DNA of 62,754 nt, filler included, from Chrysochromulina tobinii (taxonomy: Eukaryota), in assembly GCA_001275005.1 (NCBI GenBank). It is 6 parts of 6 records of this genome, joined end to end, with 100 filler letters (N's around TTAATTAATTAA, not from the genome) between each part and the next. Parts side by side here need not be neighbours in the genome. Positions count along the whole stretch, not along the records: positions 19,261 to 24,419 come from JWZX01001184.1; 5 more parts are not named here. One strand, given 5' to 3'. A program made the position numbers and the translations under genes. Shown in pieces: positions 17,549-24,519 of this stretch; the first letter of the stretch is position 1, and each line of letters starts with the position of its first letter. The notes under the pieces are model-generated. The model worked only from the letters and a program-made list of their open reading frames with translations. It did not search any database and was not told the origin of the DNA.

Positions 17549-19009
17549 TTAGCTTGCAGCCAATGCAGGCTCCTCTTTCGGCTTGCGCGCCTTGGCACAG
17601 TGCTCCGGGTTGAGTTGCGCGAACGTCGAGCTCAAAAAGGAGCCGACGTGCGTCATGAAGGGGATCGCGCCCTCTACGGCGCGATTCACGCCCTTCCGGT
17701 CGTTCGTGACGAGCTGGCGGAGGGCACGCATGAGGACACGCTCGAAAGAGTGGACATTGTGGTTGGTCTTGCACGAGAGCTCGATGTACTTGATCGTGAT
17801 GCAAGGGCACGCCATGATACGCTCCCAGATCTCAGTCGGTGGCATACAGCCGGCGTCGAAATAGGGCGTGTTGAGCAGCGCATAGATGGCGTGGAGCAGC
17901 GCCGCCTCGCCCATATGGACGGACATGCCACGAATGGGATCGAGAGCCGCGTGCAGCTTCTCGACGAGCAGGTACTCTTGCTCGCTCATCCCGGTCTCCT
18001 GCGTGAAGCGCGAGACGCTACCGGCGACGCTGAAAAATGCGCTCATTTTGGCGGCAGCTTCGGTTGCCTTGTGCGTTTTGATCACGTCGTCGCAGAGCTT
18101 TCGAAGGACCGTGTCGACGCGCTGGCGGCGCATCTGGCTGAGGAGGAGGCCACTCGCGATTCCATGCTCGAGCAGCCGCCACACGGACCGCATGTCCACC
18201 TCGTCGTGCCGCCGGCCTCGGCTCCAACGGTCACACTTGTTACCTACGAGCATGATGATGATCGGGCACGGCTGCCTCCGCATCCGGTCAAACTTGACGC
18301 GCGTGAGGAGCTTCTCGCATAGACGTTCGGCGGCGTGAAGCGAGTGTGGATCGGCCAAATCGAGAACGACTACAAACCCGTGCATCCCCGACGGCACGCT
18401 CAGGGCGCTGGTCACACCCGCATCGTTGATCGCGGGGCGCATCGCATCCCGCCGCTGCTGCTCGAGCACCGACTCTGACAACGGGTGCCGCTTTGGCGGA
18501 TCGGGTAGTCGTGAGTTCGCAGGCGGGAGGTTGGCCAGCAGGTTCAGGTCGGCTGCCTCCAACGCGAGACGCTTGGTGTGCTCGTCGGCCATGGCAGCAG
18601 ACGGTGTTTTCCCCCACTGCTCCGTTGGATCTTCCATCTCGTCGTCCACGGCGCCCAAGGGGCCACCTAACGAGCTGCCCCGGCCTTCGGCTGCGCTTGC
18701 ATTCGTTCGGGCAACATCCTTCCAGAGATTCGCCAGGCACCGGTCGATGAGCACGTCTGGTCCGCTATCCCCGAGCTGATCCTCGATCTGCAGCAGCACC
18801 TGCCGCGATGCGCCCTTGGCAGAGGCGGCGGTGAAGGGCGCCGGCATGGTGATTGCCATAACGTGCCGCCCATCCAACTTATTGCCCATGAACTGCTCAT
18901 TGAGCGTTGGCATGTTGTCGAAGCGGTGCGAGACCATCCGCTTGATCAAAGATGACTTGCCCACCCCCGATTGGCCTAGTATCGCCACGCCGAAGACGTT
19001 TCTATCCAT
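17549..19009 (-). CDS. Ras-superfamily GTPase-like protein with two large insertions
   Basis: G1 GQSGVGKS, degenerate G3 IEDQLG, GFVVVLD, G4 GNKCD, G5 IELSCK. Confidence 0.8.
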   Translation of the reverse strand: MDRNVFGVAILGQSGVGKSSLIKRMVSHRFDNMPTLNEQFMGNKLDGRHVMAITMPAPFTAASAKGASRQVLLQIEDQLGDSGPDVLIDRCLANLWKDVARTNASAAEGRGSSLGGPLGAVDDEMEDPTEQWGKTPSAAMADEHTKRLALEAADLNLLANLPPANSRLPDPPKRHPLSESVLEQQRRDAMRPAINDAGVTSALSVPSGMHGFVVVLDLADPHSLHAAERLCEKLLTRVKFDRMRRQPCPIIIMLVGNKCDRWSRGRRHDEVDMRSVWRLLEHGIASGLLLSQMRRQRVDTVLRKLCDDVIKTHKATEAAAKMSAFFSVAGSVSRFTQETGMSEQEYLLVEKLHAALDPIRGMSVHMGEAALLHAIYALLNTPYFDAGCMPPTEIWERIMACPCITIKYIELSCKTNHNVHSFERVLMRALRQLVTNDRKGVNRAVEGAIPFMTHVGSFLSSTFAQLNPEHCAKARKPKEEPALAAS

Positions 19010-19160
19010 GATGCCCCGGCCCTTTCCCAAGCGACTTCGAGCGCGATCCTCGCTCGTCGTCCGAGAGCCCTGTTTTGGGCTTACTTGTTAACAGTGAAAC
19101 GAGACACAGAGAAGAACTGCAACCAAATCTCTTGGAATCTCAGGAGCTAAAGCGGTGAGA

Positions 19161-19260
19161 NNNNNNNNNNNNNNNNNNNNNNNNNNNNNNNNNNNNNNNN
19201 NNNNTTAATTAATTAANNNNNNNNNNNNNNNNNNNNNNNNNNNNNNNNNNNNNNNNNNNN
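19161..19260. other. Artificial contig-joining spacer
   Basis: 44 N + TTAATTAATTAA + 44 N. Confidence 0.98.
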
Positions 19261-19310
19261 CTCACGCCCTTGCAAACTCATCCGAAAGAGGCCTCCAGAC
19301 ACACGCGGTC

Positions 19311-20405
19311 ATGCCGCGCAGCCAATGCGGCGCGTGCCAGTTTACGGGCATGGCGAGCTGCGAGACGCCGTCGGAGGCGCATGGAGCAGCTGCAGGGTCA
19401 TCGCCCTCGTCTACGCAAGGCTGGTCCGTCGGCAGCGAGGCCACAGCAGCCATGACAACGGCTACTGCTGGTCCCGAGGCCGCTGCAGAGTACCGTTGGC
19501 ACATGCTGCTGGAGGAGATCGAGGAGCTGTCTACGAGGCTTTCGAAGGCGACGCTCCGCGCATCTTCCGCTCGTCTCGAGTCGCTCGCCGCCGCGTCTCG
19601 ATCGCCTGAGGCCAGTGATCACGTGCCAGCACTCGCAAGCGGCGCTGACGCCAGTCAGACAGAATCGGACGCGTGCTCCATCGGCTCCATGGGCGAGTGT
19701 AGCAACGGCGACGAAACGAGCAGCGAGGGCGGCGCCGGCGACATGCGCGACGAGATCAGCGACTGGGCGCTCGCGCGGATGGCCGCTTTAGACGATCGTC
19801 TGTTTGGCGGGGCACGTGACAACCCCTGGTGGAACGCATGGAACTGGGAGGCCTGGCCGGACGGCGAGGGTGGTGATGGCGGCGGCGCTGCCGACGGTGG
19901 CGCTTCCGACGGCGGCGATGGCGTAATCGTCGTGGCCGGCGGCGGCTACGTGCAGCACGACACCCTCGGGCTGGAAAGGCACGCGAGGCGCATGTACTGC
20001 GACTACCATGACCAGCGCGGCGGCTGCCCCAACGCATGCATGGCTGTGGACATGCTGCAGCAGCGCCGAATCAACGCAGTCGTCGAGGCCCAGCAGCGCG
20101 CGCGGCGGAGGAAGCCCAGCAGCGACCCAGATGGGCGCGAGGCACGGTACGCCATGTACCGCACGGTGATCAAGTGGCAGTGGTCCGACCCCTTGGGGGC
20201 AGGAAACCGGGTGCGGCTGCCGTGCTGCGTGTTACACCGTGTTCGGAAGCTCTTCCCAAACCCAGCCTGCACGGAGGGCGGCGAAGAGCCTTGCGATTAC
20301 CTCGACGGGTGTGAGCGTCGTGGTCACTATACGGGGTTTCGCACGGCGGATGAGTCACGTGCTGCGCGAGAGGGACGGTTTGACCAGATGGATCTTGGGG
20401 ATTAA
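19311..20405 (+). CDS. KolX-like accessory protein (P2X7 cytoplasmic ballast-like domain)
   Basis: ARYAMYR...LGAGNRVRLPCCVLHRVRKLFP...GHYTGF matches the remembered consensus RYxAYR...LGxxNRxxxPxCVxxxIRxxFP...GxYTGF. Confidence 0.82.
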   Translation: MPRSQCGACQFTGMASCETPSEAHGAAAGSSPSSTQGWSVGSEATAAMTTATAGPEAAAEYRWHMLLEEIEELSTRLSKATLRASSARLESLAAASRSPEASDHVPALASGADASQTESDACSIGSMGECSNGDETSSEGGAGDMRDEISDWALARMAALDDRLFGGARDNPWWNAWNWEAWPDGEGGDGGGAADGGASDGGDGVIVVAGGGYVQHDTLGLERHARRMYCDYHDQRGGCPNACMAVDMLQQRRINAVVEAQQRARRRKPSSDPDGREARYAMYRTVIKWQWSDPLGAGNRVRLPCCVLHRVRKLFPNPACTEGGEEPCDYLDGCERRGHYTGFRTADESRAAREGRFDQMDLGD

Positions 20406-20582
20406 TTGCATCATTCATTTTCTTCCTCCAAAAACTCTAATGAATGAGTAAAACATTTCTAAAGCACACGCGCAACGGTACTCTACTGCATTACGTTAGG
20501 AGATCCATGGGGATTGGCGGCTCGCACGTCGACGCCACCGCGCACCGTGTCTCAACGCCTCTCAAGTCTCATGTTGACTCCG

Positions 20583-23500
20583 TCACTCGCTGAAGTTGAC
20601 AGCACGACGACGGCGAACGACACGTTCCAAGCCCTCGTGGGCTTTGGTTGCGGATCCGGGGGCTTCTGGTTCCGTCTCTACATGCATCCCCCCCTCTGGC
20701 TCTGCAGGGCCAGCAGCCGCAACTCCGCCACGGTTTCCCGTGTCTGCACGTCGCCTCGAGGCGCGCGGAGGCCGAGCAGGCAGGGCAGCGGGCGGCTCGA
20801 CGCCGGCCATCAGGGCAGGCGCCACAGGAGGTAGAGCTTCCTGGGCATTGGCCAGCTCTACGGCAGCAGCTTGCTCAACCACTTCCGGAGGCTCGACGTC
20901 CGGTTGAGGCTGCTCAAGGGGCGTGTCTGCGTCTCCCTCTCCGCATGCACCACAGACGTCAAATCCGCCCTCCTCCATGCACTCGCGCGCCCTGCACGAG
21001 AAGACCTTCTGGCCAGCCTTGATATTCCACTGATCGCACATGTCGCACTTGAGCGTCTCGTTCAACGCGCTTCGGCACTCCCGCTGAGTTACCCAATCCC
21101 GGGTGAGCGCGTGACCGCGCGTGCAGCACGGCCCAGTCAGCTCGGGCTCGGGCGATGGCACCCGCGGCGCTACGTCTGGCTGCCGTCGTGGCTGCCGCGC
21201 CCTCAACGGTCGCCTCGGCGGCTCAGCTTGCTCCGCCTCTTGCCTCTTTTGCTGCGTCCAAGCTGCCGCTGCTGCCTTGAACGCCTCACGGCTCGTCAGA
21301 CGAGAGTCAGCTGCACGCTGGTGGTGCGGCATCTCCTCCTGCATGAAGCGCCGGTAGGGGTTGGTCGAGCGCGCCCTCTCCTGGTGCATGGGCAGCGCAT
21401 GGTGGCTGGCACGCTGGCGGCCACCCATCCGCTTGACCTGCGGTGGATCCACCATCACATAAAAGGAGGCGGTGCACCCATCGCAGCGGAGCCGACTGAT
21501 GCCATCGAGGAGCGCGACACTCGCCTGAACTCGACAGCCAGGGCAAACGAGGGAGTGATTGGCAGCTGGCTCCCTGCCAGACTTCACGGCGCTCTCGAGC
21601 TGTGCCGCCACCGCACTCGGCGCCAACGGCTCGGCAGCAGCTGGGCAGCCAGGCGGCTGCTGGGAGAGGAGCACATGATTGATTGAGCCACGGTCACCAA
21701 CCTGAGGGCCGACGACGGTCATCGTGCCCGAAGGCACCGGCACCTCCCGCAGAGCACTCGGCCTCTCGATGCGTGGCAGGAAGTCGGTGGGCAGCTGGGC
21801 TCGCTCCTCGGCGGTCAGCTGTGGCGTCGGCGCGTCGGTTGGCGGCTGGATGGGTGGCAGTTGGTCCACGACCGCGCGCAGGATGGGGCGGACGACGGGG
21901 ACGGCAAATCGTGTTGCCGGCCAGTTAGAGGAAGGGAGAATGGCAGTGCGGTCCACCAAAGCACGGTAGAGGCGGCTGTCAGCCTCCCTGCGCCAGAACG
22001 ACGTCTTCGGCGAGTAGTAAGGGCAGAGGCGGGGAGAGTCCTTCTGGGCGAGCCGCCGCATGCCCGTGCTGCGCGCACGCACAAAGAAGGCGGTGATCCG
22101 GCGGGTGAGGCGGTTCTCGTTCTTGTCGAGCTTGCCGCACAGCATGGGAATCAGCTGCCACCTTTTGAGGACGATGCGCTTGGACTGGTACATGTGCGAG
22201 AGGTTCGAGAGGGACTCCGAGTCCCACGTGTGCCCGTTATAGATGCACTTCGAGATCAGCTCCTTCATCTTTGGGTTATTGACGAAGCTCACGAAGATTG
22301 AGCGTGCGAGCTCATTCAGGGGCGCCTTGGGCTTGTAGTTTTCCTTCTTGCACTCCGCCTCGGCTGCGCAGTGGCTGTGGTCTTGGCGGTAGACGTGCCC
22401 GAGCAGGCCCTCCTGCCAGAGCTCCCACGCAGCCTCAGAGCACTGCTTGGGCAGCAGCGTCGATGAGAGGAGCAGGCTGGCGTATTCGCTCACGCGGCAG
22501 AAGTGGTGCCTAATGGTATCGCACAGGCCAGCGGCTGCGCCAAGCAGCTGGTCCCGAGCCTTAAGCTTGCTCGCATTCGCCTCGCGCACGCGCTGCTTCT
22601 GCGCCTCCGCCTCCGCCTTTGAAGCCTGCTTGTCCGCTCGTGCCTTGGCAGCCTTGGCTGCTGCCACCGCCACTGCACCCTGATTGGCCGCTGCTGCCGC
22701 TGCCTCCTCAGCCTCCTCGGCCGCCTCCGCTGCCGCCCGTGCCGCCTCTTCAGCCACCTCGGCCGCCGCCGCCGCCGCCGCATCAGCCTCCTCGATGGTC
22801 TCATTCAACACCATCCCCTCATCCTCCTCCGCGCCCAGCACGTTGGCCTCCGTCGCGACGACCTGATGCCCGGCCGTCGCCACCGGCCCCTTGGCGGCCG
22901 CCACCGTCACACGCTGCACCTCCGCCCATGCTGTGGCGACGCTCGGGTCGTTGCGCATCAGGATCTGCTGCTTCTCGGGGATGGACAGGTTGAGATCCGC
23001 ATCACCACTCATGGCTGCCTCGCCGCCGAGCGCCTCAATATCGGATGCCGGCAGCGGTGCCCTCCTATGCTGCGCTCGCAGCAAGGCAGCTCAGGCCCTT
23101 GTGCCGCCAGAAGCCCGACGGGAGCGCCTTCTTGGCAGTCTGGATCGTGTTGAGCGCCTTCTCGTCGCCCACCACACGCATCGTCTTCGTCTCCCTCTCC
23201 ACAAGCTTTCTGAAGGCATCAATGACCTTGACCTCGACATGATAGACGTCGTAGTGGTGCACGATTGTGGCGAGGTCCGCAGGCGCCACCGCCACCATTT
23301 GGTCGAGCGCACTACGCAGCTCAGCCACCGCGCTCGCCCACGGTCGCCGCGGCCCTGCCTCGGCGTTGTCGGCGCCGTTGCCAGCAACACAACCGTGAAG
23401 CTCCCGTGCTGCCCATGTTTGCATCTCCCCTGGAAGGCGAGTGAGCAGCTTCTGCACCTCCGGCTTCTCGAGAACGAGTTTGATGTCACCCGGCGCGCCG

Positions 23501-24419
23501 CGGCACTGGTCGGTGCAGAGGTCGCGCAGGGGGAGGCCGTACTCGTGAATGAGGGAGTAGAGGCCGCGTTTGAGCCCCTCCTTCTCGAGGCGCTGGGAGA
23601 CACCCCCAACGCCCGCCGACCTGTGCTTGTCGAGCACGGTGATGAGGAGCACGAAGCCCATCGCGTGCGACGTGAAGTTGCCGATGCCGGACCGCGCGTT
23701 GCGGTTCTGGCTGTGGAATCCGTCGTACGCCGCGCTGAGGTCGCCCGCGAGCAGAACCATCTCGACGACAAACGCGGTGTCCTCCTTGTCCATTTCCTCG
23801 AGCACCTTGGCAAGCGCCGGCTTGAGCATCGTGTCCACGTTGTTGTTGAGCTCACCCAGGTTGAGGTGCGCCACCCAGTCGCTCAGCCGCGCTGGCTCCG
23901 CACCACAGAGGTGGGCGGCAGCACGGGCGGAGATGTTGGCCCAATAATCGGCGGGCTGGGCACCTCCACGTCCGGTCTGCGCAGGCGGCGCTTGATGCTC
24001 TCGTGCCCATTTGTCATAGGCAGCCAGCCGCGACGGCGTGACCGAGGTGGTCTGCCCTGCGACAAACCGTCGCAGCGCCTCGGCGTCGGGCTTCCCGACG
24101 ATCCCCATGTCCTCTGCCAGCTCCTTGAGCTGTAGCTTGGGGCGCGACTGCCGGGCATAGGCGATGGCGCGCCGGAGGCGCGAGCGCACGTCGGCCGAGT
24201 CCGCGACGGCCGAGTCAGCGGCAGCGGCGAGGGTGGCAAGGGTGGGGCGGGGGGCGGCGGTTGCGACCGCGCCGGTTGCGACCGTGCCGGTTGCATGATC
24301 GTCAACATTATCGGCGGCGTCATCGTCATCAGCGTCTTCGTTGAGGGGAAATAGAGGCGGATGGCGGACGGCGACAACGGCAGGGGCGAGGGTGGCAAGG
24401 GCGGGGTGGGGGTCGCCGG
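20583..24419 (-). CDS. Kolobok-type DDE transposase, 5'-truncated, in two frames (24419-23065 and ~23084-20583) joined by a frameshift or intron
   Basis: Motifs in order: LLAGD..AYDG, RLEKEGLKRGL, LCTDQ, HYDVYH, IRHHF, LLGHV, HTWDSESLSN, SKR, DKNEN; N-terminal HTH-like segment; frame open to the contig end. Confidence 0.8.
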
Positions 24420-24519
24420 NNNNNNNNNNNNNNNNNNNNNNNNNNNNNNNNNNNNNNNNNNNNTTAATTAATTAANNNNNNNNNNNNNNNNNNNNNNNNN
24501 NNNNNNNNNNNNNNNNNNN
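24420..24519. other. Artificial contig-joining spacer
   Basis: 44 N + TTAATTAATTAA + 44 N. Confidence 0.98.

Follow-up and report, generated by a model that had tools for sequence, protein, structure and literature searches.

The stretch analysed here, called the window throughout, is 62,754 nucleotides of Chrysochromulina tobinii DNA (assembly GCA_001275005.1, filler included). Positions 19,261 to 24,419 come from record JWZX01001184.1 and form a contig of 5,159 bp, flanked by assembly gaps on both sides. Judged by its sequence, the contig fits a transposon of the Kolobok superfamily (Kol0 type). The C-terminal tail of its transposase carries a C4 zinc ribbon, a basic linker, a two-helix HMG-like box and a ZZ/C1-like zinc finger. 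This tail module is not a member of the plant YABBY family, whose layout it recalls, and is an undescribed Kolobok architecture. The features of the contig are as follows.

20586..23090, minus strand: C-terminal frame of the transposase, stop-free, 835 aa (translation and motif reading, PMC9587614).
20943..21128, minus strand: ZZ/C1-like zinc finger.
21258..21377, minus strand: two-helix HMG-like (YABBY-type) box, RARSTNPY...AAAAAW, no helix III.
21390..21425, minus strand: basic linker GGRQRASHHALP, conserved, with the family motif SHHxPP, specific to this transposase family.
21474..21545, minus strand: C4 zinc ribbon, C-x2-C-x16-C-x2-C, LSD1/FGT1/MJ0042-like, not YABBY_N.
21546..21800, minus strand: GPxVG beta/alpha segment, conserved, directly before the C4 finger, no Pfam match.
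22203-22229, minus strand: putative catalytic E in TWDSESLSN (motif reading).
22350-22397, minus strand: H..HSHC..C finger of the transposase (motif reading).
23068..24417, minus strand: upstream frame of the transposase, its N-terminus lost to the assembly gap.
23087..23089, no strand: 1-bp insertion (frameshift), in the window copy only.
23239-23250, minus strand: DxxH motif in the upstream frame (motif reading).
23503-23517, minus strand: putative catalytic D in CTDQC (motif reading).
23710-23727, minus strand: putative catalytic D in YDGFHS (motif reading).
19263..20405, plus strand: KolX-like open reading frame (ORF), convergent, with a weak P2RX7_C match.
19261..19269, plus strand: terminal inverted repeat, inner 9 bp only; its outer 8 bp and TTAA lie inside the gap.
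19161..19260, no strand: assembly gap bounding the element contig.
24420..24519, no strand: assembly gap concealing ~1.4 kb of the other end of the element.

The C4 finger, the box and the ZZ/C1-like finger all lay downstream of the core motifs TWDSESLSN and GMRRLAQKD, in one ORF. A sequence-only reading of this DNA had reported CPGC-x16-CDGC and a YABBY-like box behind a catalytic region, with a further ZZ/DC1-like finger at ~20941-21130. The first two were found in a single minus-strand frame and the third was recovered as the ZZ/C1-like finger. That the module belongs to the transposase was also borne out, as intact relatives (1,659-1,725 aa, stop-free) carry core and tail in one protein. 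In the window copy, a 1-bp insertion near 23087-23089 separates the tail frame from the first two putative catalytic aspartates. The extra base was absent from the related loci L001-L005 and from DNA-run contigs spanning the site, and the window frameshift may be decay or an assembly error. The shift of frame at 23087 is not explained by an intron, since the other copies simply have one base fewer.

No second copy of the element was found inside the window; related copies came from a scan of metagenome contigs, in which 105 pattern matches yielded 16 related loci. L001 is a complete copy of 6,603 bp, and L008 (5,736 bp) belongs to a second family with ~50% protein identity to the first. Their inverted repeats (17 bp in L001, 15 bp in L008) both start with AGGCC and are AG-ended (5'-RR...YY-3'). 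TTAA flanked both ends of L001, L004 and L008, the right flanks differed from copy to copy in both families, and no empty site was seen. L001 and L008 also contained the convergent KolX-like ORF; the window version is 43% identical to its second-family counterpart. P2RX7_C was the top Pfam match of this ORF in four of four copies, at 15-16.5 bits with a cut-off of 23.5. KolX was not found in L012-L016, contigs that stop inside the ORF or less than ~1 kb from it, which makes this absence uninformative. The type element of the Kol0 lineage, Kolobok-1_XT, combines a transposase with KolX, which has a P2X7 ballast-like domain (PMC9587614). The inverted repeats, TTAA and the convergent KolX-like ORF fit the Kol0 type as described in that paper. 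In the core, C/DxxH and the zinc finger before the last E appeared in the right order, and the putative DDE (Asp-Asp-Glu) residues were read from motif order alone. Pfam gave no match on the core, and its structure model was of low confidence with no fold match.

Other observations were made on these copies. L012-L016 form a third family group whose transposase appears to be interrupted by introns and whose left end reads TTAA followed by AGGCC (L012, 6148). Copies of two families (L001 from 7948, L009 from 5220) adjoin near-identical flanks starting AG right after TTAA, which suggests that both went into the end of one further repeat shared by the two sites, perhaps itself a Kolobok. Short RNA-library contigs of high depth, their ends loose, correspond to the subterminal region at L004 186-463 and suggest relatives that resemble MITEs, miniature transposable elements with inverted repeats.

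A THAP domain is usual in animal Kolobok transposases (PMC6004289). No THAP match was obtained at E up to 10 with the relative P0015, either whole or as its N-terminal 261 residues. A cro/helix-turn-helix (HTH)-like segment was seen upstream of the catalytic core of the window copy at 23998-24189 (minus strand).

A phmmer search against 1.84 billion representatives returned 71 matches, 20 of which were examined in full. Twelve modules, seven from proteins also holding the core and five from fragments, aligned with 28-47% identity to the window copy; the family comes from Chrysochromulina and related metagenomes. The order was C4 finger, SHHxPP linker, two-helix HMG-like box and then usually the ZZ/C1 finger. 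The four finger cysteines and the closing W were invariant, and the SHHxPP linker was conserved. In a set of 34 core-motif proteins, which is redundant and was partly used in building the module profile, at least the finger was present in all 26 that extend at least 224 residues past the core; in five of these, which represent one family-2 allele, a frameshift follows the finger, and one stops early in the box. Among the remaining eight, the seven without a module match stop within 155 residues, and one is a spliced public gene model. Core and module trees paired the same members (Mantel rho 0.62, p 0.0022, n=10), and this congruence shows that the module is old and no recent capture. The ratio of nonsynonymous to synonymous substitution rates (dN/dS), over 26-114 codons per region, was 0.27-0.56 for the finger (four pairs) and 0.55-0.67 for the box (two pairs), and 1.05 for L001 versus L009 over the 60 codons that follow the box. 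The module is family-wide and is inherited with the element.

The public gene model just mentioned, that of the window contig (Ctob_016215, P0109), splices the finger out near 21436, and none of the RNA-library contigs joins tail to core. Both facts would suit a tail that is a passenger without a role in transposition, whether a host fragment acquired by a single element or an unrelated gene that the assembly joined on. In two studies, RNA-library contigs covered 21273-21496 and 21276-21472 and were unspliced across ~21436, which argues against the splicing of the public model. The RNA runs were available as contigs only, which give no strand, level or single core-to-tail transcript and may include DNA carry-over. 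Several assemblies show an uninterrupted ORF, the module lies within the inverted repeats in two families, and the congruent trees and dN/dS below 1 also speak against a passenger. This explanation is largely refuted, and we regard it as very improbable. As to the rest of the element, RNA contigs matched the KolX-like ORF (19263-20405) in six of six runs, with long pieces in five; coverage of the transposase was patchy, and expression was not rankable. One contig of RNA run X15 joins 20522 to 23872 and represents an internally deleted derivative without core and tail.

The module was compared with YABBY by Pfam profiles, published descriptions and Atlas cluster neighbours. The YABBY finger is defined as C-X2-C-X20-C-X1-HC (PMC6791920). 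In contrast, all 12 aligned modules had x16 spacing and no His. YABBY_N (PF24868) was absent among the matches listed for the 12 modules, and likewise among those listed when 14 fingers were searched at E up to 10 (in one case the best 25 of 36). LSD1, FGT1, Zn_ribbon_4 and DUF7351 recurred as matches below cut-off. Because of the x16 spacing, the missing HC end and the lack of a YABBY_N match, the finger is not that of YABBY; at the level of sequence it resembles generic LSD1/zinc-ribbon fingers. Of the YABBY-like pair proposed in the sequence-only reading, the order and the box therefore stood and the finger did not.

The YABBY domain consists of HMG helices I-II without helix III (PMC8074164; 10.1101/2022.11.22.517060). 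For the window box, YABBY PF04690 was the sole Pfam match, but its 25.2 bits (E 2e-5) fell short of the cut-off of 28.6. PF04690 matched nine of the 12 aligned modules at E up to 1 (best E 5e-8). One of 17 relatives passed the cut-off in a whole-protein scan (fragment P0061, 31.8 bits), and none of six did in a separate scan, in which family 2 scored HMG_box instead. The HMG box PF00505 reached at best 17.4 bits among the whole proteins scanned (cut-off 25.4), and the match spanned only positions 3-45 of the 69 in the profile. A check of 23 proteins revealed no helix III motif. Structure prediction, proposed earlier as a check, gave a 4-strand ribbon plus two helices for finger and box, with a predicted local distance difference test (pLDDT) score of 82. 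The top PDB sequence-profile matches of the module were the HMG boxes of Abf2 and TFAM (E 0.02-0.08), and most members retained the aromatic and Asn positions with which the beginning of helix I aligns to HMG boxes. The box is YABBY-type, with predicted HMG helices I-II and no helix III, and is no complete HMG box.

A match to PF04690 is not diagnostic, since finger-less proteins of giant-virus type (126-128 aa) scored 31-41 bits with this profile, above the window box. One of these, on a contig of a giant-virus metagenome-assembled genome (MAG; L017 2989-3366), reached 36.4 bits, above the cut-off. A search of viral contigs for finger-less boxes gave one giant-virus MAG contig and one weak match, and none of 124 pattern matches in viral contigs was related to the transposase. 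Yabby-like HMG proteins are annotated in ascoviruses as well (PMC8361023). Module-profile searches, which were word-indexed and thus weak for distant kin, returned 14 longer proteins, all of the transposase family, and five short ones, namely three family fragments and two finger-less boxes; no host protein with the whole module was found.

These matches bear on whether finger and box share ancestry with YABBY as a unit, through capture of an algal YABBY-like gene by a Kolobok ancestor or through descent of YABBY from a transposase tail. The same order and the same two-helix truncation occur in YABBY (PMC8074164), and PF04690 was the commonest match, above cut-off in P0061. The Atlas language-model neighbours, which are lead-level evidence, were YABBY clusters, the rank-1 cluster, with 144 members and 211 aa, being mostly haptophyte (PF04690, score 0.87). 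The origin of algal YABBYs is unresolved according to PMC5941816; a Kolobok is listed in Micromonas commoda (PMC9587614), and a YABBY-like gene is known from Micromonas too (PMC8074164). Shared ancestry is opposed by the finger (x16 without His, 12 of 12, and no YABBY_N match), by the linker, which is fixed and conserved here and variable in YABBY (PMC8074164), and by the module-profile searches, which led only to the transposase family and the two finger-less proteins. We consider it unlikely. In that event YABBY would be of transposase origin, as several other transcription factors of plants are, or would stem from an old exchange with transposons, a consequence as doubtful as its premise. 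The earlier suggestion that the element captured a YABBY-like unit was not supported: the finger fails the YABBY definition, family 2 scores HMG_box, finger-less proteins of viral type outscore the box, and the module is inherited with the element and has no host counterpart among the proteins searched.

We hold, with moderate confidence, that the conserved C-terminal arm of this Kolobok transposase likely binds and bends DNA and that, without descent from plant YABBY, it was probably put together from parts that are widespread. The zinc ribbon, basic linker, two-helix box and ZZ/C1 finger would together help the transposase to grip DNA, which would be bound and bent at the transposon ends or at the TTAA target. 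Both YABBY and HMG boxes are domains that bind DNA and bend it (PMC6019494), and by analogy we infer that the module probably works like YABBY, its box gripping and bending DNA and perhaps taking the place of the THAP domain usual in animal Kolobok transposases. With the ZZ/C1-like finger, profile searches matched the HERC2 and p62 ZZ domains (E 2e-4 to 1e-3), and two of the entries listed (HERC2, p300) are H3-peptide chimeras. It may contact histone or protein N-termini and so engage chromatin, in parallel with piggyBac-family tails: the C-terminal cysteine-rich domain binds DNA in piggyBac (PB) and histone H3 in PiggyMac (Pgm) (PMC8086355).

Several points weigh against this interpretation. 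In some copies of family 2 (P0003, L007/L008) a frameshift separates finger from box, and the box is only modestly conserved, with a mean identity of 0.43 versus 0.64 for the core. The dN/dS values come from short regions, and dN/dS after the box was 0.47 in L012 versus L015, no higher than in the box. A weak HTH_31 match (E 0.01) in the N-terminal segment of one relative, one of three homologous segments tested, provides an alternative candidate end-binding domain. With regard to independent origin, Atlas ranks 2-5 were true plant YABBY clusters (0.76-0.78, lead level), and short fingers can drift past detection by hidden Markov models, so that it is no more than probable.

Alternatively, the main task of the box and basic linker might be to let the transposase dimerise and enter the nucleus. 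In CRC, dimerisation and nuclear localisation depend on the YABBY domain (PMC6019494); the linker here is conserved and basic, and the two helices lack the third HMG arm. However, the helix I positions shared with HMG boxes are kept in most members, and the same CRC paper names the YABBY domain as the main DNA-binding part. We judge a role without DNA contact rather unlikely and continue to favour DNA binding and bending by the arm.

No paper on the fusion or on a haptophyte Kolobok was found in the literature searched, in agreement with the sequence-only reading, which knew of no description; most subscription journals, Repbase and bioRxiv supplements were outside the search. The text of four PMC9587614 supplements held no match for YABBY, Emiliania, Chrysochromulina or Micromonas, and PMC10030945 and 10.1101/2021.09.26.461848 gave nothing further on novelty. 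Beyond the element, the adjacent 512-codon ORF (17549-19087, minus strand) encodes a GTPase of the Ras family (PF00071, E 7e-10) that contains long insertions.

Transposases of Zisupton/KDZ type contain full HMG boxes (the literature search returned no paper on them), so an HMG-like domain in a transposase is not itself new. The present element adds a Kolobok architecture in which THAP is undetected and a three-part tail is conserved. The tail is a concrete, deletable candidate for recognition of the ends or of the TTAA target in a poorly studied superfamily. The YABBY layout of a C4 finger and half an HMG box exists outside plants, and would be a clear convergence or, less likely, a lead on the origin of YABBY. 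When surveys of haptophytes or metagenomes report PF04690 matches, these may come from pieces of a transposase and are not to be tallied as YABBY factors.

Among the known systems compared, the Kol0 lineage shares with the element TTAA flanks, 5'-RR termini, a second KolX-like gene and, as read from motif order, DxxH then a zinc finger ahead of the putative last E. Unlike that lineage, it has no THAP match, its transposase is long (~1,700 aa), its KolX-like match is under the Pfam cut-off, and its C-terminal ribbon, half-HMG box and ZZ finger appear in no lineage description consulted (PMC9587614). The piggyBac family also targets TTAA (PMC9587614), and piggyBac and PiggyMac offer a functional parallel as TTAA-targeting transposases with a C-terminal zinc module, whereas they belong to another superfamily, use another finger type and have no HMG-like box. 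The finger-less proteins of large-DNA-virus type (P0113, P0114, L017; ascovirus yabby-like ORFs) share the two-helix box with an R-x-P-T-A-Y-N start and were the only non-transposase proteins matched by the module profile; unlike the module, they are ~127 aa long and lack a zinc finger. Plant YABBY (PF24868 plus PF04690; FIL, CRC, INO) likewise has a C4 finger upstream of a helices I-II box without helix III, and PF04690 is the best-matching family for most transposase boxes. The YABBY finger differs in its x20 spacing and HC end, and YABBY proteins stand alone at 160-230 aa, whereas the module is embedded in a transposase ORF with a fixed, conserved SHHxPP linker of 34-36 residues.
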